Shown here: in pieces, positions 9,777-63,699 of the stretch | Layout: every line of letters starts with the position of its first letter | Numbering within the stretch: the first letter of the stretch is position 1 | From: an uncultured Acidimicrobiaceae bacterium | GTDB taxonomy: Bacteria > Actinomycetota > Acidimicrobiia > Acidimicrobiales > RAAP-2 | Direction: 5' to 3' | Assembly (NCBI GenBank): GCA_963711065.1 | Contig: CAVQCO010000004.1 | Span: 62,867 to 126,866, forward strand | Length of the DNA stretch: 64,000 nt | Notes under the pieces: model-generated | What the model was told of the DNA's origin: nothing | What the model saw: the letters and a program-made list of their open reading frames with translations, nothing else | Database searches by the model: none | Program-made: the position numbers and the translations under genes

Positions 9777-10274
9777 CCCTCGGCCGGGCGCGTCGGCGGC
9801 AGCCCGAGCTTGCGGTGGTCCCAGCTCACCGTCCGCTGCACGTGGAGCTTGATCGCCACCCGCTTGTGCAGCATCGTCTCGATGAACGGCGCGAGGTCGT
9901 CGGAATAGGCGCCGTAGTAGCGCTCGAAGACGCTCACGCCGAGGGTGAAGAGCCTGTCGGGGTCCTCGACGATCTCCGCCGCGCCGACCAGCTCCACGCC
10001 GCGCAGCTCCTCGTAGTAGTCTCCGTCCTCGAAGAGGAGGGTGCAGACGCGGGTCTCGGCGTAGGTTCTGCACCTTCTGCGACTTCGACTTGGTCTCCAC
10101 CGTCACGCACCCGTCGAGGAACCCGTACCACATGGCCACCGCGTGGATGGACCCGTCGCGGGCGAGCGAGCACATCGTCATGGCCCGTCGCTCGGCGAGG
10201 AACGCCGCCACCTCGCCGGGCGTCATGGCAATGGCCTTGCGTTGGTTCACGCCGTGGCCCATGGCCTCGGTCAT
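9773..10274 (-). pseudogene. PPOX-class (pyridoxamine 5'-phosphate oxidase-like, probably F420-dependent) enzyme, frameshifted
   Basis: N-terminus MTEAMGHGV..QNLRRDPR is in one frame. The C-terminus CTLLFEDGDYYEELRGVELVGAAEIVEDPDRL.. is in the frame of ORF 9773..9997. The junction is near 10043-10052 and the length is 3n+1. Confidence 0.7.
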
Positions 10275-10703: not shown

Positions 10704-11450
10704 GTGGCCATCGCAAACGCACCGGCAACCAACGGCCGGCCTCCGGGCACGGGGCCCTCGCGGGACAACCGTCCCCTCGTGCTCGTGGTCGACGACGAGG
10801 AGTCCTACCGTCAGGCCCTCGCGTCGGGCCTGACGCGAGAGGGTTTCACCGTCGAGAGCGCAGGCGACGGGCACGAGGCGCTGCGCCTGTTCCACCGGGT
10901 GCACCCCGACCTGGTGCTCCTCGACGTCATGCTGCCCGACCAGTCGGGCATCGAAATCTGCCAGCAGATGCGGAGCCTCAAGCCGGTGCCCATCATCATG
11001 GTCACCGCACGCGACTCCGAGGTCGACATCGTGCTCGGCCTGGAGCTCGGCGCCAGCGACTACGTGGCCAAGCCGTTCCGCCTCCGCGAGCTGGTGGCCC
11101 GCATGCGGGCCGTGCTGCGACGCGGCGTGGCCGTGGCCGAGCACCACGAGGAGGTGCTCTCCGTCGGGCCGGTCCGCCTCGACGCCGGCCGCCGCGAGGT
11201 TACGGTGAGCGAGGTCCCCGTCGACCTCTCCCGCAAGGAGTTCGACCTCCTGGCCCTGCTCATGTCCCACAGCGGCCAGGTCGTCACCCGGGACTGGTGC
11301 ATCGACCGGCTGTGGTGGGACCAGGAGCTGACCGACACCCGCACCCTCGACACCCACATCAAGCGGCTGCGGCGCAAGATCGAGCCCGACCCGGCCAACC
11401 CGCGCCATCTGGTCACGGTGCGGGGTGTCGGGTTCCGCTTCGAGGCCTAG
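10704..11450 (+). CDS. OmpR/PhoB-family response regulator (no adjacent kinase)
   Basis: Receiver (VLVVDDE..DLVLLDVMLPD) plus winged-helix output (VRGVGFRF). Confidence 0.9.
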   Translation: MAIANAPATNGRPPGTGPSRDNRPLVLVVDDEESYRQALASGLTREGFTVESAGDGHEALRLFHRVHPDLVLLDVMLPDQSGIEICQQMRSLKPVPIIMVTARDSEVDIVLGLELGASDYVAKPFRLRELVARMRAVLRRGVAVAEHHEEVLSVGPVRLDAGRREVTVSEVPVDLSRKEFDLLALLMSHSGQVVTRDWCIDRLWWDQELTDTRTLDTHIKRLRRKIEPDPANPRHLVTVRGVGFRFEA

Positions 11451-11488: not shown

Positions 11489-11947
11489 ATGCGCACAGGT
11501 GACGTCGTCCCCGATTTCGAGCTCCCCGACCAGACGGGGACGCCCCGGACGCTGAGCGGGTTCCTGGCGGACGGCCCGGTCGTCCTCTTCTTCTACCCGG
11601 CCGCCATGACCTACGGCTGCACGAAGGAGAGCTGCCACTTCCGCGACCTGGCGGCCGAGTTCGCCGCCGTCGGCGCCCAACCGGTCGGCATCAGCGCCGA
11701 CACGGTGGACAAACAGAAGCGCTTCGACGAGAAGGAGTCGCTGGGCTTCCCGCTGCTGTCCGACCACGAGCGCGTGGTGGCGGCGCAGCTCGGCGCGAAG
11801 CGCGGCCCGAACTTCTTGCCCAACAAGCGGATCACCTTCGTCATCGACACCGACCGCACGCTGCTCGACGTCATCCACTCGGAGGTGTCGATGGGCTCCC
11901 ACGCCGACAAGGCCCTCGCCCTCCTGAAGGCGCGCCGCGCTGCCTGA
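11489..11947 (+). CDS. bcp: peroxiredoxin, Bcp-type
   Basis: MRTGDVVPDFELPDQ.., peroxidatic Cys context YPAAMTYGCTKESC. ATG 11489 lies within ORF 11297..11947. Confidence 0.88.
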   Translation: MRTGDVVPDFELPDQTGTPRTLSGFLADGPVVLFFYPAAMTYGCTKESCHFRDLAAEFAAVGAQPVGISADTVDKQKRFDEKESLGFPLLSDHERVVAAQLGAKRGPNFLPNKRITFVIDTDRTLLDVIHSEVSMGSHADKALALLKARRAA

Positions 11948-12761
11948 GCGCGCCGTCGTCGTCACCGGCGCGGCCTCGGGGATCGGGGCGGCCACCGCGA
12001 CCCGGCTGCGCGCCGCGGGCTGGCACGTGGTGGGTGTCGACAAGGACGACACCGACGTGGTGGCCGACCTCGGGACCACCGCCGGGCGGGCCCGGGCGGT
12101 CGCCGAGGCGGCCGAGCGCTGCGGCGGGTCCCTGGCCGGCGTCGTCACCTGCGCCGGGCTGGCCGGAGCCCCGAGCCGGGCCGGGTCGCTGCTGGCGGCA
12201 GTGAACTACTTCGGGACGGTCGACGTCCTCGACGGCCTGCGCCCGCTGCTCGCCCCGGGGGGCGCCGCGGTCGCCATCAGCTCGAACTCGACGACCGTGC
12301 AACCGGCCATCCCGGCGGACCTCGTGGAAGCCTGCCTGGCGCACGACGAGGAGCTGAGCGCGCGCATCGCCGACGCCCGCGGCTCCCTGGTGGCCTACCC
12401 CGCCACCAAGTTGGCGGTCGCCCACTGGGTCAGGCGCCAGGCGACGAGTGGCGCGTGGGCCGGCGCGGGTCTCCGGCTGAACGCGATCGCGCCGGGCATG
12501 ATCGACACTCCGATGGTGGCCGGCATGCGGGCCGACCCCGAGACGGGCCCGCTGCTCGACCTGCTGCCGATCCCGCTCGGGCGGCCCGGTCGCCCCGAGG
12601 AGATCGCCGCTCTGGTCGAGTTCCTGCTCGGCCCGGACGGATCGTTCTTCTGCGGGTCGGTCGTGTTCTGCGACGGCGGCAGCGACGCGCTCCTGCGCAC
12701 CCGGGACTGGCCCGCTGCGTGGGACATCTCCGTGCGCGACCTCGGCCAGCAGCTGTCCTGA
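11940..12761 (+). CDS. short-chain dehydrogenase/reductase (SDR)
   Basis: The Rossmann motif VTGAASGIGAA is encoded at 11955-11990, upstream of the first ATG/GTG of the ORF (12027/12021). The only in-frame start-like codon after the stop at 11925-11927 is CTG 11940. Confidence 0.7.
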   Translation: MPERAVVVTGAASGIGAATATRLRAAGWHVVGVDKDDTDVVADLGTTAGRARAVAEAAERCGGSLAGVVTCAGLAGAPSRAGSLLAAVNYFGTVDVLDGLRPLLAPGGAAVAISSNSTTVQPAIPADLVEACLAHDEELSARIADARGSLVAYPATKLAVAHWVRRQATSGAWAGAGLRLNAIAPGMIDTPMVAGMRADPETGPLLDLLPIPLGRPGRPEEIAALVEFLLGPDGSFFCGSVVFCDGGSDALLRTRDWPAAWDISVRDLGQQLS

Positions 12762-12811
12762 TCACCTCCGCCGGGCGCCTCCCGCGCGACGGCCGACCAT
12801 AGGCTTCCCCC

Positions 12812-14056
12812 ATGCCGGGCCGGATCCTGGTGGACACCACCCCGCTGCGGCAGAGCCGAGACTTCCGGCTCCTCTTCACGGGACAGCTCATCTCCATGCT
12901 CGGGACGCAGCTGACCGTGGTCGCCATCCCGTACCAGGTCTACTCCATGACCCACTCCTCGCTGCAGGTGGGGGCCATCAGCCTGGCCCAGCTCTTCCCC
13001 TTCCTCGCCGGCGCGCTCTCCGCCGGGCCCATCGGCGACACCGTGGACCGGCGCCGCATCATGGTGTGGACCGCAGCGGGCATGACGGTGACCAGCGCGG
13101 CCATGGCCGTCAACGCCGCGCTGGCCCATCCGTCCCTCGTCGCGCTCTACGTCGTCAGCTCCCTGGCGGCTGGGCTCATGGGCTTCTCCAACACCGCGCG
13201 CATGGCCTCGGTGCCGGGCATGGTCGAGCGTCGCCATCTGGCGGCGGCCGCGGCCATGATGCAGATCGTCTTCCAGGTCGGCGTCATCGTGGGACCGGCG
13301 CTCTCGGGCGTGCTGCTCGGCATCGGCCTCCCGCTCGTCTACGCCCTCGACGGTGTCTCCTTCGTGGTGGCTACCGTGACCTCGGCTCTCCTCCGCCCGA
13401 TCCCGCCGACCGAGCATGCGGGGCGGCTGTCGCCTTGGCAATCGACCAAGGAGGGGGTGCGCTACCTGCGCACCCGTCAGGCGCTCCAGGGCGTCTACCT
13501 GATCGACATCAACGCCATGGTGTTCGGCATGCCCCGCGCGCTGTTCCCCGCGATGGCCGGCGCCGTGTTCGGCGGCGGGACCGTCACCTTGGGCTTCCTC
13601 TACGCCGCGCCGGGCGTCGGGGCGCTCGTCGGCGCGGTGACCACGGGCTGGGTCGCCAACCTGCGCCGCCAGGGGTGGGCGGTGATCGTGGCGGTCTCCG
13701 TGTGGGGCGCCGCCATCGCCCTCTTCGGCCTCGTCGACACGCTGTGGGTCGGCCTCGCCCTCCTAGCCGTGGCCGGATGGGCCGACGTGATCTCCGCGGT
13801 GCTGCGCAACACCATGCTGCAGACCACGGTCCCCGAGCGCCTGCGGAGCCGGATGTCCTCCATCCAGATGGCCGTCGTCCAGGGCGGCCCGCGCCTCGGC
13901 GACCTGGAGTCGGGCGCGGTGGCGACGTTGACCAGCATCGAGTTCTCGGTGGTCTCGGGTGGGCTCGCCTGCATCGCGGGCGCCGCCGTCATCGGCGCGC
14001 TCCTCCCGCTCTTCCGCCACCACGTGGCGGGCGAAGTCGACGACGTCCCCGTATGA
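12812..14056 (+). CDS. MFS transporter
   Basis: 414 aa with about 12 predicted TM helices and an EntS/DUF894-like N-terminus (FRLLFTGQLISMLGTQ). Confidence 0.85.
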   Translation: MPGRILVDTTPLRQSRDFRLLFTGQLISMLGTQLTVVAIPYQVYSMTHSSLQVGAISLAQLFPFLAGALSAGPIGDTVDRRRIMVWTAAGMTVTSAAMAVNAALAHPSLVALYVVSSLAAGLMGFSNTARMASVPGMVERRHLAAAAAMMQIVFQVGVIVGPALSGVLLGIGLPLVYALDGVSFVVATVTSALLRPIPPTEHAGRLSPWQSTKEGVRYLRTRQALQGVYLIDINAMVFGMPRALFPAMAGAVFGGGTVTLGFLYAAPGVGALVGAVTTGWVANLRRQGWAVIVAVSVWGAAIALFGLVDTLWVGLALLAVAGWADVISAVLRNTMLQTTVPERLRSRMSSIQMAVVQGGPRLGDLESGAVATLTSIEFSVVSGGLACIAGAAVIGALLPLFRHHVAGEVDDVPV

Positions 14057-52669: not shown

Positions 52670-54647
<1,978 letters not shown>

Positions 54648-54673: not shown

Positions 54674-57185
54674 ATGCCACGTCAGACCACACGCGGCTCG
54701 GGCCGCGGGGGAGCGGGCTCGGGTGGGGGCAACGACACCCCGCCGGGCGACGACGAGCCCGTCAGCGGGTCGATCGAGCCCATCGAGATCCAAGAGGAGA
54801 TGGAGCGCTCGTTCCTCGAGTACTCCATGTCGGTCATCGTCGCCCGCGCCCTGCCCGACGTGCGCGACGGGCTCAAGCCCGTGCACCGCCGGATCCTCTA
54901 CTCCATGTACGACAACGGGCAGCGCCCCGACCGGCCCACACAGCAAGTGCGCCAAGGTCGTGGGCGAGGTCATGGGGACCTACCACCCGCACGGCGACTC
55001 GGCGATCTACGAGGCGCTGGCCCGCATGGTGCAGGAGTTCTCGCTCCGCTACCCGCTGATCGACGGCCACGGCAGCTTCGGGGGCCGCGGCCCCGACGAC
55101 GGCGCGGCGGCCATGCGGTACACCGAGTGCCGCCTCGCCCCGCTCGCCCTCGAGCTGATGGCGGACATCGACGAAGAGACCGTCGACATGGTCGCCAACT
55201 ACGACGGCTCGGCCCAGGAGCCGGTGGTGCTGCCGGCGCGCTTCCCCAACCTCCTCGTCAACGGGTCCCAGGGCATTGCGGTGGGCATGGCGACGAACGT
55301 CCCGCCGCACAACATGGGCGAGGTGATCGACGCCGCGATCCACGTGCTGCACCACCCCGAGGCCACGCCCGACGAGCTCATGGAGTTCGTGAAGGGCCCC
55401 GACTTCCCCACCGGCGCCCAGATCCTGGGGCGCCAGGGCATCCTCGACGCGTACCGCACGGGACGTGGGTCGATAAAGATGCGTGCCGTCGCCGAGATCG
55501 AGGAAGGCCGCGTCGGCGACCGCATCGTGGTGACCGAGCTGCCGTACCAGACCTCGGTCGAGGTGATCGAGCAGAAGATCACCGAGCTCGTGCGCTCCGG
55601 CGACCTCGACGGGATCAGCGAACTGCGCAACGCGTCGGCCAACCAGGAGCCGCGCCTCGTCATCGAGCTCAAGCGCGACGCCAACGCCAACGTGGTCCTG
55701 AACAACCTCTACAAGCAGACGCCGCTGCAGACCAGCTTCGGCGTGAACATGCTGGCGCTCGTCGACAGCGTGCCGCGCACGCTCAACCTGGCCCAGGCGC
55801 TCTCGCACTACATCGACCACCAGATCGAGGTGATCCGGCGTCGTTCCGAGTTCCGCCTGGAGAAGGCGCGCAACCGGGCCCACATCGTCGAGGGCCTCCT
55901 GCGCGCCATCGACATGCTCGACGCCGTCATCGCGACCATCCGGGCGTCGGCCGATCGCCCCGAGGCCCGCACCGCCCTGATGGCCGAGCCGTTCTCCTTC
56001 ACCGAGGTGCAGGCGACGCACATCCTCGACATGACGCTGGGCCGGCTCACCCGCCTCGGCCGCTCCGAGCTGGAGGAGGAGATGACGCAGCTGCGCGCCA
56101 CGATCGCCGAGCTCGAGGCGATCCTCTCCGACGAGGGCAAGCTGCGCGGCGTCATCGAGACGGAGATGACCGCGATCCGGGACAAGTACGCCAACCCGCG
56201 CCGGAGCGTGATCACCCACGACCCGGGCGAGATGGGCGTCGAGGACCTCATCTCCGACGAGGAGATCGTCGTGACCATGACGCAGGCCGGGTACATCAAG
56301 TCGGTGGCGGCGGCCGCCTTCCGGACCCAGGGCCGCGGTGGGCGGGGCGTGCAGGGGGCGCGGCTGAAGGAAGAGGACCTCGTCCGGGAGGTGGTGCACA
56401 CCACGACCCACACCTACCTGCTCCTGTTCTCGAACCAGGGCAAGGTGTACCGGCTGCGCGGCCACGAGATCCCGATGAAGGAACGCACGGCGCGCGGCAC
56501 GGCCGCGGTGAACCTGGTGCCGCTGGCGCCGAACGAGTCGATCACGGCGATCATCGCCACGCGCGAGTTCTCGCCCGACCAGTACCTCGTGTTCGCCACG
56601 GCGCACGGTCAGGTGAAGAAGACCGCCATGAGCGAGTACGACAAGTCGCGCCGCGAGGGCTTCATCGCCATCAACCTGCGCGACGGCGACGAACTGGTGC
56701 GGGTGGTGGCGACGTCGGGCCACGACGACCTCTTCGAGGTCACGCGCAACGGCATGACCATCCGCTTCAACGAGGAGGACGTCCGGGCGATGGGCCGCGA
56801 CGCGGCCGGTGTGCGCGGCATCCGCCTGCGCCAGGGCGACGTCGTCGTGTCCTGTGACGTGGCGGCCGACGACACGGACATCCTGATCGTCACCGACGCC
56901 GGCTACGGCAAGCGGACGAAGCTCGAGCGGTTCAACCGTCAGGCGCGGGGCGGGCAGGGTGTGCGCGGGATCCGCCTGACCGGGACCCGGGGGACGGTGG
57001 TGGCGGCGTTCATGGTCGCCCTGGACGAGGAGATCCTCCTGGTGTCCTCGGGCGGCGTGGTCATCCGCACCGCGGCCCGCGAGATCGCCTCGCAGGGACG
57101 CGACGCCACCGGGGTGCGGGTCATGAACCTCGACGACGGGCAGAGCGTGGCGGCCGTGGCCCGGGTCGCGGCCGACGAGGACTGA
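54674..57185 (+). pseudogene. gyrA: DNA gyrase subunit A, frameshifted near the N-terminus
   Basis: ATG 54674 gives ..[22 protein letters not shown]. It then continues as [27 protein letters not shown] in the frame of ORF 54723..57185. There is an extra nt near 54938 and the length is 3n+1. Confidence 0.92.
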
Positions 57186-57225: not shown

Positions 57226-57924
57226 TCAGAAGAAGCGCAGTGAGGTCAGCGGCCACACGCGCACCTCGACCTTGCCGACGATGAGCGACTTGGGGATCGG
57301 GCCCCAGTAGCGGCTGTCGCACGAGTCGGTGCGGTTGTCGCCCATGACGAAGTAGTCGTTGGCCGGGACGCGGTAGGGGTGCGCGAGGTTGGCGGCGTTG
57401 CCGTCCGGCCCCGGGGTCGTGATGCCCTGCTCCGAGGCCGGGAGCCAGTTCTCGTCCAGTTTCTTGCCGTCGATGTAGACGTGACCCCCCGACAGCGACA
57501 TGACGTCGCCCGGCAGCCCCACGACCCGCTTCACGAGGTCGTTCACCTCGGGGCCGCCGCAGTTCTCCGCCGGCGGCCGCGAGAACACGACGATGTCGCC
57601 CCGGTCGACGCCGTGCAGGTGGTAGCTCAACTTGTTGACGAGGATGCGGTCGCCGATCTGCAACGTGGGCAGCATGGAGCCCGACGGGATGAAGAAGGTC
57701 TGCACCACGAAGGTGCGCAAGAGGACGGCCACCAGGACGGCGACCACGACCACGATGATCGCCTCGCGGATCCACCGGCCGGTGGTGGCGCGGGGCGGGA
57801 CCGGCCCGGGCGGGGTCTCGGTCTCGGCCCCGGGTGGGGCGTCCCCTGGAGTGCCGCCCGCCGGACTTCCGTCGGCCGGGGGCTCGTCGACGGCGACCGC
57901 CGGGTCGTTCGGATCAGGCGTCAC
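57226..57924 (-). CDS. lepB: signal peptidase I
   Basis: TM anchor, catalytic-Ser box IPSGSMLPTL and Lys box (GDNRTDSCDSRYWG). Confidence 0.88.
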   Translation of the reverse strand: MTPDPNDPAVAVDEPPADGSPAGGTPGDAPPGAETETPPGPVPPRATTGRWIREAIIVVVVAVLVAVLLRTFVVQTFFIPSGSMLPTLQIGDRILVNKLSYHLHGVDRGDIVVFSRPPAENCGGPEVNDLVKRVVGLPGDVMSLSGGHVYIDGKKLDENWLPASEQGITTPGPDGNAANLAHPYRVPANDYFVMGDNRTDSCDSRYWGPIPKSLIVGKVEVRVWPLTSLRFF

Positions 57925-59782: not shown

Positions 59783-60382
59783 TCAGCCCAGCCAGTCCCG
59801 CACGGCGGGGATGCCGCCCTCCTGGTACTGCTGGACGATGGCGGCGCGGATCTGCTGGAGGCGCCGCTCGACGGCCTGGTGCCGCTCGGTCAGCTCGATC
59901 AGCTGCCCCTCGAACTCGGCGAGGAGCCGGGTCACCTCCTCGGGTGAGGACAGGTCGGCGAACGCCATCTGCTCGTGCGCGGCCACGAGCCGGTCCGAGC
60001 GGGTGAAGACGCCGAGGTCGAGGTCGTCGAGGGCGTCGAGCCCCCGCGGCCCCGACCACCCCTCGCCCCACGTGCGCGTGGTGACGACGGTGGGGAGCTC
60101 GCCGACGACCGCCTGCTGTTCGGCTCCGTTTCCGGACAGGCAGCGGCGGAGGATCGCCACGTCTCCGGCCAGGATCTCCCGGGCGTAGGCCAGCGACTCG
60201 AGGGCCAGCGTCAGCTCCTCGCGCCAGACACGGATGGGCGGCCGGCCCCGGAGGCGCTCCACGACCGCCGACTCCACGAGCACCCGGTCGATATCGGCGA
60301 GCAGGATGGGGCGCTCCTCGGGCGAGCGCTCCCCTGCCCCGCTCTGGTCGTCCTCGTGCGCGTGCGCGTGCGCTGCTGGCAC
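59783..60382 (-). CDS. hypothetical coiled-coil protein
   Basis: 199 aa from GTG 60382 (VPAAHAHAHEDD..). The upstream part of ORF 59783..60697 is Arg-rich and looks non-coding. Confidence 0.45.
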   Translation of the reverse strand: MPAAHAHAHEDDQSGAGERSPEERPILLADIDRVLVESAVVERLRGRPPIRVWREELTLALESLAYAREILAGDVAILRRCLSGNGAEQQAVVGELPTVVTTRTWGEGWSGPRGLDALDDLDLGVFTRSDRLVAAHEQMAFADLSSPEEVTRLLAEFEGQLIELTERHQAVERRLQQIRAAIVQQYQEGGIPAVRDWLG

Positions 60383-60719
60383 GGGATCAATTCCCCTTTC
60401 CCACCGTCTCGGAGCTACTCGAGCCGACCCTCGTTCAGAAACTATGTACCACGGGTGCGACGGCAGTAAGGGGTGGTCCGGCCCTATTTCTGGGGTTCTT
60501 TCGGCCCGGTCAGGCCGGGGCGTCGACCGTCGGTCGGTGGTCGTCCTGTGGACAACGGGTCCGTTCCTACCAAACCCCCGTTTGGGTGCGCTCGTCCCCA
60601 AGTCATCCACAGCCTGTGCCCGAAAGGGTCGCCGTCGACCGTCTTTCGTGTGGCCCCGCCACGTGCTTTGCTCTGTTCGTGCAGGCAGAACGACCACGCG
60701 CCGTCCCCGGGCGGCCGCG

Positions 60720-61856
60720 ATGCTGAGCCTGCAGCCGACCGCCGAGGGGGTCCTCCCGGGGCAGCTCCTGGAGGGGGCGATCCGGGCCGGTTACATCGAC
60801 GCCGGGCGCTTCAAGATCCCCGATGTCAACGTGCAGCCCGCCAGCCTGGACCTGCGCCTGGGTGAGCGGGCGCTCCGCATCCGCTGCAGCTTCCTGCCGG
60901 GGTCCGACCCGGTCGAGCGCAAGCTGAAGGACTACGTCCTCGACGAGATCGACCTGCGGGGCGACGGTGCGATGCTCGAGGCCCGCTGTCCCTACCTGAT
61001 TGAGCTGAAGGAGCGCCTCGACCTCCCGGCCGGCCTCCGGGGCAAGGCCAACCCGAAGAGCTCGACCGGCCGGATCGACGTGTTCACCCGGGTCATCACC
61101 GACCACAGCGACCGGTTCGACGAGGTGGCGCCGGGCTACCACGGCCCCCTCTACCTGGAGGTGGTGCCGCTGTCGTTCGCCGTCCGGGTGCGCGAGGACC
61201 TGACGCTCAACCAGCTGCGCCTGTCCATGGGCCAGCCCTGGCTCAGCGACGACGAGGTGCGTCGGACGCACCTGGTGGAGCCGATCCTCTTCAAGGAGGG
61301 CGCCCCCGTGCCCGTCGACGACCTCGTCCTCTCCAACGGCCTGTTCCTCGGACTCGACCTCCACGGCGACGAGCGCGGCCAGGTGGGGTACAGCACCCGT
61401 GACAGCGCACCGCTCCTCGACCTGACCGGCGCGGGAGACGTCGACCCGAGGCCGTTCTGGGACCCCGTGGTCCGGGAGGAGGGCGACCGGCTCGTGCTGT
61501 CGCCCAAGCGCTTCTACCTCCTGATGTCGCACGAGGCGGTGAGCATCCCGCCGAACCTGGCGGCCGAGATGACGGCGTACGACCCGACCAGCGGAGAGCT
61601 GCGGACGCACTACGCGGGCTTCTTCGATCCCGGCTTCGGGTTCGACCCCACCGGCGGCTTCCGGGGCTCGCGCGCCGCGCTCGAGGTACGCGCCCACGAC
61701 GTCCCCTTCATGGTCGAGAACGGGCAGGCCGTCTGCAAGCTGACCTTCGAGCGCATGCTCGAAGAACCGACCGCGCTGTACGGCACCGGCATCGGCTCGT
61801 CGTACCAGCAGCAGGAGGAGACGCTCAGCAGGTACTTCAGGCGCTCCATGCGTTAG
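60720..61856 (+). CDS. 2'-deoxycytidine 5'-triphosphate deaminase (long DCD-family form)
   Basis: 378 aa from ATG 60720. Contains QPASLDLRLG, KSSTGRIDVFTR, FFDPGFG. Confidence 0.78.
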   Translation: MLSLQPTAEGVLPGQLLEGAIRAGYIDAGRFKIPDVNVQPASLDLRLGERALRIRCSFLPGSDPVERKLKDYVLDEIDLRGDGAMLEARCPYLIELKERLDLPAGLRGKANPKSSTGRIDVFTRVITDHSDRFDEVAPGYHGPLYLEVVPLSFAVRVREDLTLNQLRLSMGQPWLSDDEVRRTHLVEPILFKEGAPVPVDDLVLSNGLFLGLDLHGDERGQVGYSTRDSAPLLDLTGAGDVDPRPFWDPVVREEGDRLVLSPKRFYLLMSHEAVSIPPNLAAEMTAYDPTSGELRTHYAGFFDPGFGFDPTGGFRGSRAALEVRAHDVPFMVENGQAVCKLTFERMLEEPTALYGTGIGSSYQQQEETLSRYFRRSMR

Positions 61857-62130
61857 CGACGACCCACGCCACGGGATGAACCGTGCGCGGGGTCTGACGA
61901 GCAACGGGCCTTCACCGTCTCAGCGGTCGATCCTCACGACGAAAAGAGGCACCGAAACGACTGTGGACGCAATGTCCATGGTGCCGTCAGCCGTGATGCA
62001 ATCACATCTAATGAACAACTTTGGCAGGTAGCGGCCGATTCTCCTGTTCCTCTGTCGGGTATAGCCCGCGACGTTGCGGGCTTCAGAGCGGGTCTGTGTT
62101 GCCCATACACAGAAGGAGCGATGCAAAGAC

Positions 62131-63699
62131 ATGAGGCGGAGCGGTCTTACCTCACTCGGTGTCCTTACGTGCGGGCTGATCCTGGCGACCGGTCTGATGC
62201 CGGCAGGTGCCGCATCACCGGCGCCGGACCCCCTCGCCTCGGCGGCGAGCAACGTCCAGAGCGTGCAGAACGCCGCCGCGGCCGTGGTGGCGCAGGTGAC
62301 CGCGCCGGCCGCGGCGCCGGCGCCGGCGCCGGCCGTCGCCGCGAACCCCGCCGCGAAACCGGCCGCCACCCCGGCCACGAACCCGCTGGCACCGCTCACC
62401 GCACTGCCCGTCTCCATTTCGCTCCCGATCACGGCGCTGGCCAACGAAATCGGGAGCAACCTGTTGCCGGGCCAGGACTCGACCACCGGGACCAACACGG
62501 CGACCCAGTCGTCGCCGCTCGCCAACGTCGACGCGCCGGTCAACGTGTGTTCCTTGTCGATCGGGCTGCTGGCCGACGCCAGCAGCAGCTGCTCGACCAC
62601 CTCGGTCGGGCTGAACCAGCTCGGCGCCATCGGCACGGTCAACGTCCCGATCTCCGCCCAGGACAACGCGATCGGGCTGCTCAGCCAGGCGGCGTCGGCC
62701 CTGGGCCTGACCACGGGCCAATCGCCCGCCTCGACCACCCAGAACGGCACCATCAACGCCTACGTTCCGGCGAGCATCTGCTCCGTTAACGTCGGGCTGG
62801 TCGGCAACACCGCCAGCAGCTGCAACCTGACCGGGACCAACGGGACCACCACGCAAACAGGCGTGCTCGACGCGGCCGTGCCCGTGACCGTGTGCGACGT
62901 CATCGCCGAGATCGACGGGAACAGCACGGCCGACTGCCCGCAACAGCCCGACGCGGTGTCGCAGTCGGGACAGCTGGCCGACGTGTTCCTGCCCGTCACC
63001 GCCTGTGGCGTGATCGTCGAGGTGGACGGCACCGCGACGGGCATGTGCATGCCGGTCTCGGGGTTCCCACTCGTCAACGGCCTGCCCACTGACAACGTGA
63101 GCCAGAGCGCCCCGATCGACGGCGTGCTGCCGGTCAACGCCTGGAGCGTCGTGGTCGCGGTGGCCGGGAGCGCGAGAAACTCGTGCGAACCCACCCACCT
63201 CTCAACGACGCCGACGGGCTCGGTGCCGGTGAACGTGTCCGTCACTGTCTGCTCCGTGACGGCGGCCGTCGACGGTAACGCTGCGGGCACCTGCACGGGG
63301 GCGGGATCCACCAGTATCCCGATCGGCACGCCAGGGAGCCCCGGGACCGGGGTGACGCTGCCCATCACGCTGTGCGGCATTGAGGCCGCCCTCGGAGGCA
63401 CGGCAAGCGCGGCCTGCCCGGAGCCGACGACCGCGTCCTCGACGCCGCCGCCCGCCACGTCACCGTCGAAGTCGTCGCCCATCGCGGTGCCGGTGGCCCT
63501 GGCCTCGGCGACACCTACGCCGGCCCAGGCCGCGGCGACCTCGTCGGGTGGCGCCGGGGCGTTGGCCACCACCGGGGCGCCTCTGCTGCTCGAGCTCCTG
63601 ATCGGGGCAGCGGCGCTGATCATGGGTCTCGCGATCAGTCGCCTCAGCCGTCGTCAAGACCGCAACAGGCAGCAGGCCTCCACTCCGCTGCAGGAGTAG
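62131..63699 (+). CDS. secreted multi-repeat chaplin-like protein with an LAxTG sortase signal
   Basis: Signal peptide MRRSGLTSLGVLTCGLILATGLMPAGAAS. About nine repeats of PVNVC-x3-IGL-x6-C type. C-terminal LATTG plus hydrophobic helix plus RLSRRQDR. ATG 62131 lies 12 nt after GAAGGAG. Confidence 0.72.
   Translation: MRRSGLTSLGVLTCGLILATGLMPAGAASPAPDPLASAASNVQSVQNAAAAVVAQVTAPAAAPAPAPAVAANPAAKPAATPATNPLAPLTALPVSISLPITALANEIGSNLLPGQDSTTGTNTATQSSPLANVDAPVNVCSLSIGLLADASSSCSTTSVGLNQLGAIGTVNVPISAQDNAIGLLSQAASALGLTTGQSPASTTQNGTINAYVPASICSVNVGLVGNTASSCNLTGTNGTTTQTGVLDAAVPVTVCDVIAEIDGNSTADCPQQPDAVSQSGQLADVFLPVTACGVIVEVDGTATGMCMPVSGFPLVNGLPTDNVSQSAPIDGVLPVNAWSVVVAVAGSARNSCEPTHLSTTPTGSVPVNVSVTVCSVTAAVDGNAAGTCTGAGSTSIPIGTPGSPGTGVTLPITLCGIEAALGGTASAACPEPTTASSTPPPATSPSKSSPIAVPVALASATPTPAQAAATSSGGAGALATTGAPLLLELLIGAAALIMGLAISRLSRRQDRNRQQASTPLQE

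Follow-up and report, generated by a model that had tools for sequence, protein, structure and literature searches.

A predicted wall-anchored protein with nine diverged hairpin units remotely related to the chaplin domain in an uncultured Acidimicrobiaceae bacterium

A gene close to the 3' end of a 64,000-nucleotide stretch of contig CAVQCO010000004.1, from an uncultured Acidimicrobiaceae bacterium (the whole stretch is referred to below as the window), encodes a protein of 522 residues, here called the surface protein, along which pairs of cysteines recur at a constant distance. A preliminary description of the gene had likened these repeats to the chaplin (DUF320) domain of Streptomyces and had suggested a polyvalent surface protein of an architecture not previously described. 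The locus raises two questions, namely whether the repeats are related to chaplins and what a chain carrying nine of them might do at the cell surface. The likely answer, in our assessment, is that the protein is exported by the Sec pathway and anchored to the cell wall as a tandem array of nine diverged, short-hairpin chaplin units that would form a hydrophobic or adhesive sheet at the surface. It is a strongly diverged form of an already known protein type and not a new kind of system.

Repeat architecture of the surface protein

The protein consisted of a signal peptide, an Ala/Pro spacer, nine units spaced about 39 aa apart and a LATTG sorting signal (Table 1). The claim of a secreted protein with an LAxTG signal and about nine serial units was upheld, as the signal peptide, the LATTG motif and homology among the units were all found. 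The units recurred every 36-46 residues. Fourteen cysteines were present, one of them in the signal peptide and twelve in six C-x13-C pairs that lay exactly where the preliminary description had listed them, and when the residues were shuffled 100,000 times, six such pairs never arose (the maximum was five, obtained twice). In unit U5 the first cysteine is replaced by W338. This position was Cys in all homologues examined and in the five genomic loci described below, so the Trp is private to the window copy, where it may reflect either genuine variation or an error at one sequenced base (TGC/TGT to TGG).

Family alignments of 12 members and of 36 members were used to follow the units across homologues. 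Every Cys of the seven pairs, together with the Pro four residues before the first Cys, was invariant or nearly so in both alignments. In hhalign comparisons the seven Cys-type units aligned with one another in register (probability 55-98%, E-values down to 8e-14), and they gave the consensus T-T-Q-x-G-x-x-[DN]-A-x-V-P-V-[TN]-V-C-[SG]-[VI]-x-[VA]-x-[LVI]-x-G-x-A-x-x-x-C. In a column profile of 239 Cys units the first Cys was followed by S/G/A and then V/I, an upstream turn had the form Q-x-G, and G[NTS] stood six residues before the second Cys. Each unit had features of its own that persisted throughout the family, as in CDVIAEIDGNSTADC vs CGVIVEVDGTATGMC, and the array is therefore old and not recently expanded. 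Recent tandem duplication was considered and rejected since every unit was orthologously conserved across the family.

The two Cys-less segments that had been counted as variants of the repeat were confirmed as units, N1 less strongly than N2. Unit N2 matched the Cys-less units of related multi-repeat proteins with an hhalign probability of 95.9% (E 5.6e-9), while N1 matched the Cys-less units of Geodermatophilaceae-type proteins at 72.7% (E 3.2e-5). The invariant Asn of the Cys-less units fell at the N of the chaplin 'CGN' (P-I-S-A-Q-D-N and P-I-T-A-L-A-N vs P-V-N-V-C-G-N), and this central chaplin Asn was kept in N1 and N2 alone (N105 and N179).

At the C-terminus, the LAxTG pentapeptide, hydrophobic span and basic tail were of the type seen in substrates of the class E sortase SrtE. 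The signal read LATTG-APLLLELLIGAAALIMGLAIS-RLSRRQDR, with a hydrophobic stretch of 23 residues over which AlphaFold2 (AF2) placed a helix (residues 484-514). Residues L478, A479, T481 and G482 were invariant or nearly so among the 36 members, and the LAxTG pattern was matched in the window and in all of the orthologous loci. The NCBIfam model LAXTG_small_WW matched residues 464-512 weakly, at 19.8 bits against a cutoff of 65.

At the N-terminus, Cys14 of the signal peptide was not conserved and a lipoprotein was rejected. In the spacer that follows, AF2 predicted a helix at residues 42-56 with low confidence. A short repeat in this spacer was present as (STVQ)x5 in the orthologous locus L001 (positions 10001-10200) and as a single SNVQSVQ in the window (62215-62300), and the widely differing spacer length among homologues suggests slippage-prone, unconstrained sequence.

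Relationship of the units to the chaplin domain

A HMMER search of 1.84 billion representative proteins with the family profile returned 127 matches at E<=1e-3. Apart from fragments of the family itself, the matches were multi-repeat, LAxTG-ended actinobacterial proteins with C-x13-C units of the form 'VPVTVCGNAVGVLGDAxAxC'. Ten such proteins were tested against the Pfam chaplin model PF03777 (ChpA-C / DUF320), which has a gathering cutoff of 21 bits, and five scored clearly above it: P0113 (210 bits, 8 stretches), P0124 (107 bits, 5 stretches), P0152 (102 bits, 4 stretches), P0126 (52 bits, 4 stretches) and P0102 (38 bits, 4 stretches). Another, P0108, was right at the cutoff. RefSeq proteins of Blastococcus saxobsidens and Geodermatophilus ruber among these relatives carried the UniRef name 'Small secreted domain (DUF320)'. 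A repeat-only profile, from which the signal peptide and the anchor had been removed, still matched P0124 (E 8e-7), P0126 (4e-6) and P0102 (5e-5) at Z=1.84e9, and the matches were therefore not driven by the anchor.

Unit-level comparisons gave the same picture. The surface protein's own units matched the Pfam-verified short chaplin units with an hhalign probability of 96.3% (E 1.5e-9, 26 columns, both Cys aligned) and the Geodermatophilaceae-type units with 97.0% (E 1e-10), and the short chaplin units in turn matched canonical S. coelicolor chaplins with 97.3% (E 2e-11), the canonical profile in this comparison being a thin one of four sequences. Because the units had been picked by their Cys spacing, the non-Cys columns of the target alignments were permuted as a control. 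The permuted alignments scored 9 +/- 2.7 (maximum 16.7) against observed scores of 37.6 and 41.6, so that neither composition nor Cys spacing can account for the scores. In the reverse direction, a hidden Markov model (HMM) built from the Pfam-verified units only gave the surface protein 55.8 bits with domains on all nine units, while 200 shuffled queries did not exceed 7.5 bits.

The Cys spacing of 13 residues was shared with the Pfam-accepted units of P0113, P0124 and P0152, and differed from the spacing of 17 in the S. coelicolor chaplins used for comparison. The earlier observation that the units are about four residues shorter between the cysteines was thus borne out, as C-x13-C vs C-x17-C in the Pfam-validated chaplins. 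Of the features by which a chaplin domain is recognised, the conserved Cys pair was present, with seven pairs across the family and one of them W/C in the window copy.

Several results weigh against a chaplin assignment. The HMM check proposed in the preliminary description gave a negative outcome, as PF03777 had no match at E<=10 to the whole protein or to five two-unit fragments, and all 36 family members lacked a match at E<=1, while the positive controls ChpH, ChpE, ChpD and ChpF scored 86-104 bits and P0113 scored as given above. NCBIfam returned only the sub-threshold anchor match, and it seems to be without a chaplin model, as ChpH itself matched nothing there. Compared directly with the canonical chaplin profile, made from four S. 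coelicolor sequences that Pfam confirmed at those same 86-104 bits, the whole family gave an hhalign probability of 3.8% and the merged units 18% over 18 columns. The chaplin domain is defined by three GN motifs placed 12-13 residues apart at turns (PMC13251363), and GN motifs were not found in the column profile of the Cys units. The intermediates, moreover, had been found with the family's own profile and hence are the chaplin-domain proteins most like the family.

These points would also be expected if the likeness were convergent, the repeat being an unrelated Cys-stapled hydrophobic hairpin that shares P-x3-C and C-x13-C with chaplins. The failure of PF03777 on 36 of 36 members, the missing GN motifs and the weak direct comparison would then need no further explanation, and short, low-complexity units make profile scores fragile. 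We nevertheless regard convergence as very improbable, since the repeat region alone gave library-wide significant matches to Pfam-verified chaplin-domain proteins, the unit alignments at 96-97% were in register over 26-28 columns, and the permutation control, which kept Cys spacing and composition, fell more than 10 standard deviations (SD) below the observed score. The Cys-less units gain nothing from Cys columns, yet they matched Cys-less chaplin-like units and kept the chaplin Asn, and the order of Cys-less units, Cys units and LAxTG was common to P0141, P0111 and P0108.

At the level of sequence profiles, these comparisons indicated homology of the units to Pfam-recognised chaplin-domain repeats. 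They support a remote position for the units within the chaplin superfamily, as a short-hairpin C-x13-C subtype linked to canonical chaplins through intermediates, which would be a superfamily relation and not family membership. The suggested likeness to the chaplin domain accordingly survived as remote homology through these intermediates, and not as a direct match to PF03777 or to the canonical profile.

Coding potential, constraint and upstream region

The gene is real and under constraint, as dN/dS (the ratio of non-synonymous to synonymous substitution rates) was 0.16-0.27 between it and three orthologues, a conserved AAGGAG precedes its ATG and its synteny near gyrBA is fixed. The units had lower dN/dS values than the linkers. 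GC content at third codon positions (GC3) was 0.89, and GC by codon position was typical of coding sequence. A word-indexed search of 5.8 billion proteins recovered 51 homologues, all of them unannotated and none with a Pfam domain.

The possibility that the open reading frame (ORF) is non-functional, either as a shadow of a high-GC genome or as a decaying pseudogene, which would explain the Cys-to-Trp change, was weighed against these data. Long ORFs overlap the gene on the opposite strand, as they do throughout this 70% GC sequence, W338 destroys one conserved Cys pair, and several database homologues were frameshifted or fused. The dN/dS range, the intact frame with its signal peptide and sorting signal, the conserved Shine-Dalgarno sequence and the like layout of the 51 homologues make this explanation barely credible. 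The frameshifts themselves sit in metagenome-assembled genomes (MAGs), for which assembly errors are the simpler explanation.

The affected homologues (P0006, P0023, P0029, P0037 (815-866 aa), P0033, P0047, P0051 and the locus L004 at ~10780-10800) either read through into the membrane-protein gene downstream, giving fusions, or switched frame inside the repeats, probably through indel errors in MAG assemblies. They inflate apparent protein lengths and could mislead automated annotation.

The start was assigned to the ATG at 62131 because indels in the orthologous upstream regions disrupt the frame of the alternative TTG start at 62074, which would give a longer frame and was rejected, and because the AAGGAG was invariant. 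Just upstream of the Shine-Dalgarno sequence lies a non-coding block of about 24 nt that was conserved more strongly across the orthologous loci than the coding sequence, the encoded proteins being ~60-89% identical. Within this block no covariation was found by RNAalifold, no Rfam match was obtained and no sigma-70 consensus was seen. The block may be an operator, a promoter element of the extracytoplasmic function (ECF) type or a leader. Scans for sigma-70 promoters and terminators returned nothing meaningful, the sole 'terminator' call being within the coding sequence, and no Rfam families were found in the 64-kb window.

Table 1. Features of the surface-protein gene, its product and the surrounding part of the window (positions are those of the window)
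Feature	Positions	Strand	Residues	Remarks
gyrB	52682-54580			Origin-proximal core region of the window
gyrA	54723-57185			Origin-proximal core region of the window
Type I signal peptidase S26	57226-57924	minus		Lies ~4 kb 5' of the surface-protein gene
Conserved ~200-aa protein without family match	59783-60406	minus		Adjoins dCTP deaminase
Two-domain dCTP deaminase	60693-61856
Conserved non-coding block GCGGGCTTCAGAGCGGGTCTGTGT	62076..62099	+		~24 nt, just upstream of the Shine-Dalgarno sequence; near-invariant across 6 orthologous upstream regions
Shine-Dalgarno sequence GAAGGAG	62113..62119	+		AAGGAG invariant in all aligned orthologous upstream regions; 11 nt 5' of ATG 62131
Whole coding sequence	62131..63699	+	522 aa + stop	From the ORF list and translation
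Signal peptide (MRR, hydrophobic core, PAGA|AS)	62131..62214	+	1-28	Read from the sequence; n/h/c-region pattern conserved in homologues; predicted cleavage site
N-terminal spacer, variable, Ala/Pro/Val/Gln-rich	62215..62406	+	29-92	Poor conservation and variable length in the alignment
Unit N1, Cys-less, PVSISLPITALANEIGSNLLP	62407..62469	+	93-113	Asn105 near-invariant, at the place of the chaplin 'CGN' Asn
Unit U1, VDAPVNVCSLSIGLLADASSSC	62527..62592	+	C140-x13-C154	Best single-unit match to the HMM of Pfam-verified short chaplin units, 27.3 bits
Unit N2, Cys-less, VNVPISAQDNAIGLLSQAASA	62638..62700	+	170-190	Asn179 invariant
Unit U2, AYVPASICSVNVGLVGNTASSC	62758..62823	+	C217-x13-C231	AF2 hairpin E214-222/E227-232, pLDDT ~62-68
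Unit U3, AAVPVTVCDVIAEIDGNSTADC	62872..62937	+	C255-x13-C269	AF2 strand 252-270, pLDDT ~71-72
Unit U4, VFLPVTACGVIVEVDGTATGMC	62983..63048	+	C292-x13-C306	AF2 strand 294-306, pLDDT up to ~80
Unit U5, GVLPVNAWSVVVAVAGSARNSC	63121..63186	+	W338-x13-C352	W338 (TGG 63142-63144) in place of the conserved first Cys
Unit U6, VNVSVTVCSVTAAVDGNAAGTC	63229..63294	+	C374-x13-C388	AF2 hairpin E371-380/E382-389, pLDDT ~73-78
Unit U7, VTLPITLCGIEAALGGTASAAC	63352..63417	+	C415-x13-C429	AF2 pLDDT ~68-76
Stalk, Ser/Thr/Pro/Ala-rich, between repeats and sorting signal	63418..63561	+	430-477	From composition; variable in the alignment, disordered in AF2
C-terminal sorting signal	63562..63696	+		LATTG (478-482), hydrophobic helix (~483-505), basic tail RLSRRQDRNR

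Predicted structure and possible function

The mature part of the protein had a grand average of hydropathy (GRAVY) of +0.39, an isoelectric point (pI) of 4.05 and only 24 charged residues in 453, and the units had GRAVY values of 0.6-1.4 with hydrophobic residues alternating. AF2 placed a strand-turn-strand hairpin in each Cys unit, mostly at a predicted local distance difference test (pLDDT) score of ~70-83, a geometry in which the two Cys would face each other. From these properties a sequence of events can be proposed in which the protein would be exported by the Sec pathway, after which the Cys pairs would most likely be oxidised, so that a disulfide staples the two strands of each hairpin in the seven units which carry, or ancestrally carried, the pair. 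By analogy with Streptomyces, cleavage at LATT|G and linkage of the protein to peptidoglycan would most likely be the work of a class E sortase (the housekeeping type in actinobacteria), whose gene would lie in another part of the genome. SrtE is specific for LAxTG (PMC5148588), and the long chaplins are LAxTG proteins anchored by it (PMC5148588, PMC13251363). The amphipathic hairpins would then stack, within the molecule or between neighbours, into a cross-beta or solenoid-like sheet, and the resulting beta-sheet layer may make the cell surface hydrophobic or adhesive in the way of the wall-anchored long chaplins in Streptomyces.

A further group of results tells against this scheme. The AF2 model of the full protein, built on the 36-sequence alignment, had a mean pLDDT of 49.7 and a predicted template modelling (pTM) score of 0.41, and a trimmed model of the repeat region (14 sequences) was uninformative at a pLDDT of 28.8. 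When the former model was searched with Foldseek against the PDB, nothing was found below E=1, the best value being E 1.1, and the top matches, all non-significant, were the HxuA secretion domain, a putative adhesin (3ljy), tapirin, pectate lyase and FapC. The structure prediction proposed as a check therefore yielded moderately confident hairpins for each Cys unit and a poor global fold without a significant match. Given these models and searches, stacking or amyloid formation is something we infer, as are the disulfides, the sortase anchoring and the role as a hydrophobic coat or in adhesion. As W338 replaces a conserved Cys, Cys352 would be left unpaired and the Cys count of the mature protein is odd. 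When all frames of the 64-kb window and of the five orthologous loci (~21 kb each) were searched for the sortase signature TLxTC, none was found in coding context; no sortase was among the genes called around the homologue P0032, and neither the window nor the loci showed a short single-domain chaplin-like partner gene. A second LAxTG protein or chaplin-like motif was likewise not found in the window or the orthologous loci.

The chief alternative concerns the way in which the hairpins stack: intramolecularly, as a solenoid stalk, or intermolecularly, as an amyloid-like coat. Under a stalk model the ancestry shared with chaplins is accepted, but the nine hairpins would form a rigid, disulfide-stapled beta-solenoid in a monomeric stalk or adhesin that juts out from the wall and binds a substrate or spaces the envelope, with no amyloid polymerisation and no hydrophobic-sheath role. 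Nine units in one chain at a regular spacing of ~39 aa, with each orthologous unit individually conserved, are what a defined fold would lead one to expect. The top Foldseek matches, although non-significant, were beta-helix or solenoid proteins, and the lack of a visible short chaplin-like partner in the window and loci points the same way, as does the fact that aerial hyphae are not known from Acidimicrobiaceae genera. With all Foldseek E-values at or above 1 and a pTM of 0.41, however, no fold was established; the extremely uncharged, hydrophobic composition would be unusual for a soluble monomeric stalk, and the closest characterised relatives self-assemble. The stalk model appears unlikely to us on balance, and the wall-anchored hydrophobic or adhesive sheet of chaplin units is preferred.

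Comparison with known systems

The Streptomyces long chaplins ChpA-C share with the surface protein a signal peptide, hydrophobic beta-rich Cys-pair domains, a Ser/Thr/Pro-rich linker and the LAxTG signal, and their P-V-x-V-C core aligned in register, with remote profile homology through the intermediates. The surface protein differs from the long-chaplin architecture in that it has nine divergent units and not two canonical domains, a Cys spacing of x13 and not x17, and Cys units without GN motifs that PF03777 does not detect. Its host is labelled Acidimicrobiaceae and is not a mycelial actinomycete, and no short chaplins or rodlins were seen nearby.

The nearest relatives outside the family in the library-wide search were uncharacterised multi-repeat DUF320/ChpA-C LAxTG proteins, among them those of Blastococcus saxobsidens (WP_104528362.1, P0108) and Geodermatophilus ruber (WP_091320782.1, P0104) and the metagenomic P0113, as well as P0141 and P0111. 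They share the short C-x13-C hairpin, the placement of Cys-less units before Cys units, 4-9 units per chain and an LA[YMHL]TG anchor. They keep 'CGN' or 'SGN' and several of them pass the Pfam cutoff, whereas the surface-protein family has C[SDG][VI] and an upstream TTQxG turn. Their units are near-identical recent duplicates, in contrast to the nine units of the surface-protein family, each of which has its own conserved identity. In P0152, an extra Cys/Pro-rich module with a repeated 'C(T/G)PPVCHG(P/S)xC' was observed at residues ~255-380, between the chaplin domains and the sorting signal; this is a second kind of Cys repeat, which we did not recognise.

Two other groups of proteins resemble the surface protein more distantly. 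CwpA and CwpB of Actinoplanes missouriensis are also class E sortase substrates that give a hydrophobic surface without a canonical chaplin domain, with beta clusters and disorder in AF2 models (PMC13251363). As described, they are set apart by having no serial Cys-pair repeat, CwpB having one Cys pair and CwpA four scattered Cys (PMC13251363). The repeat amyloids CsgA and FapC are likewise built from imperfect strand-turn-strand repeats in tandem, which form a stacked beta-solenoid, and FapC (9nqd) was among the Foldseek matches, although non-significantly (E=3, template modelling (TM) score <0.1). They have no sequence relation to the surface protein, are secreted through the outer membrane, are not sortase-anchored and have no disulfide staples.

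The view that the architecture was undescribed did not hold, as LAxTG proteins with 4-8 Pfam-recognised ChpA-C domains and with the short C-x13-C hairpin are already in the databases. The related statement that known long chaplins carry only two domains is correct for the characterised Streptomyces ChpA-C, and is contradicted by these 4-8-domain database proteins. Since sortase substrates with many chaplin domains exist in the databases, the claim of an unprecedented architecture stands for the experimental literature only. What was known already is the combination of many chaplin domains, up to 8-9 units, with LAxTG in uncharacterised proteins of Geodermatophilaceae and of metagenomes. What appears to be new is a distinct subfamily invisible to Pfam, with Cys units that are individually conserved and, judging from the alignments, without GN motifs. 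Also new is that MAGs placed in a deep class of the actinobacteria carry this subfamily as a core gene in conserved synteny.

The reach of the chaplin superfamily is thereby extended to a lineage labelled Acidimicrobiaceae. We found no literature on chaplins in Acidimicrobiia or Geodermatophilaceae. A comparative review from 2014 placed the origin of chaplins at the node leading to aerial mycelium (PMC4255298), and a conserved core-genome protein with many chaplin units in a class that branches this deeply would speak for surface hydrophobicity or adhesion having come first and aerial growth later. A more far-reaching proposal, which we hold to be doubtful, is that the chaplin fold predates the aerial-mycelium lineage and extends beyond it. 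The Acidimicrobiia, a deep-branching class, would then carry close to oriC a single-copy core gene for a poly-chaplin, and its nine individually conserved, disulfide-stapled hairpins would fold into a cross-beta solenoid within the molecule. Such a protein would be a pre-assembled, wall-anchored amyloid unit with no need of short-chaplin partners, and the repeats would constitute a new domain family unseen by Pfam and NCBIfam. On the annotation side there is a gap, in that Pfam and NCBIfam miss this family along with some of the broader C-x13-C multi-repeat group, and the alignments could seed a new model. The significance is limited by the fact that sortase-anchored hydrophobic beta-hairpin repeats are known in principle, and no long-standing question is made newly testable.

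Genomic neighbourhood

Relatives at 60-89% identity were located in five genome loci. All of these belong to MAGs that carry the title 'uncultured Acidimicrobiaceae bacterium', a label given by the submitters, and isolate names in MFD, which we take to stand for Microflora Danica. The synteny near the replication origin was fixed and comprised DciA, gyrB, gyrA, signal peptidase S26, an amidohydrolase, an unknown protein of ~200 aa, dCTP deaminase, the surface-protein gene, two unknown membrane proteins, an aldo/keto reductase and an acyl-CoA synthetase.

The two membrane-protein genes were adjacent to each other and invariably located 3' of the surface-protein gene, just past the 3' end of the window (11636-12523 and 12753-13706 in locus L001, 11294-12238 and 12589-13623 in locus L006). 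Neither had a Pfam or NCBIfam match. The two resembled paralogues, each with an N-terminal cytoplasmic 'LEEVF(L/T)SR(E/T)FG' motif, one transmembrane helix and a long Ser/Thr/Gly/Pro-rich ectodomain, and they may be functional partners of the surface protein. In the first of these genes, a C-terminal 'NTVT..VTSTVGQV' segment resembled the 'VQSVQNAAA' helix of the N-terminal spacer of the surface protein.

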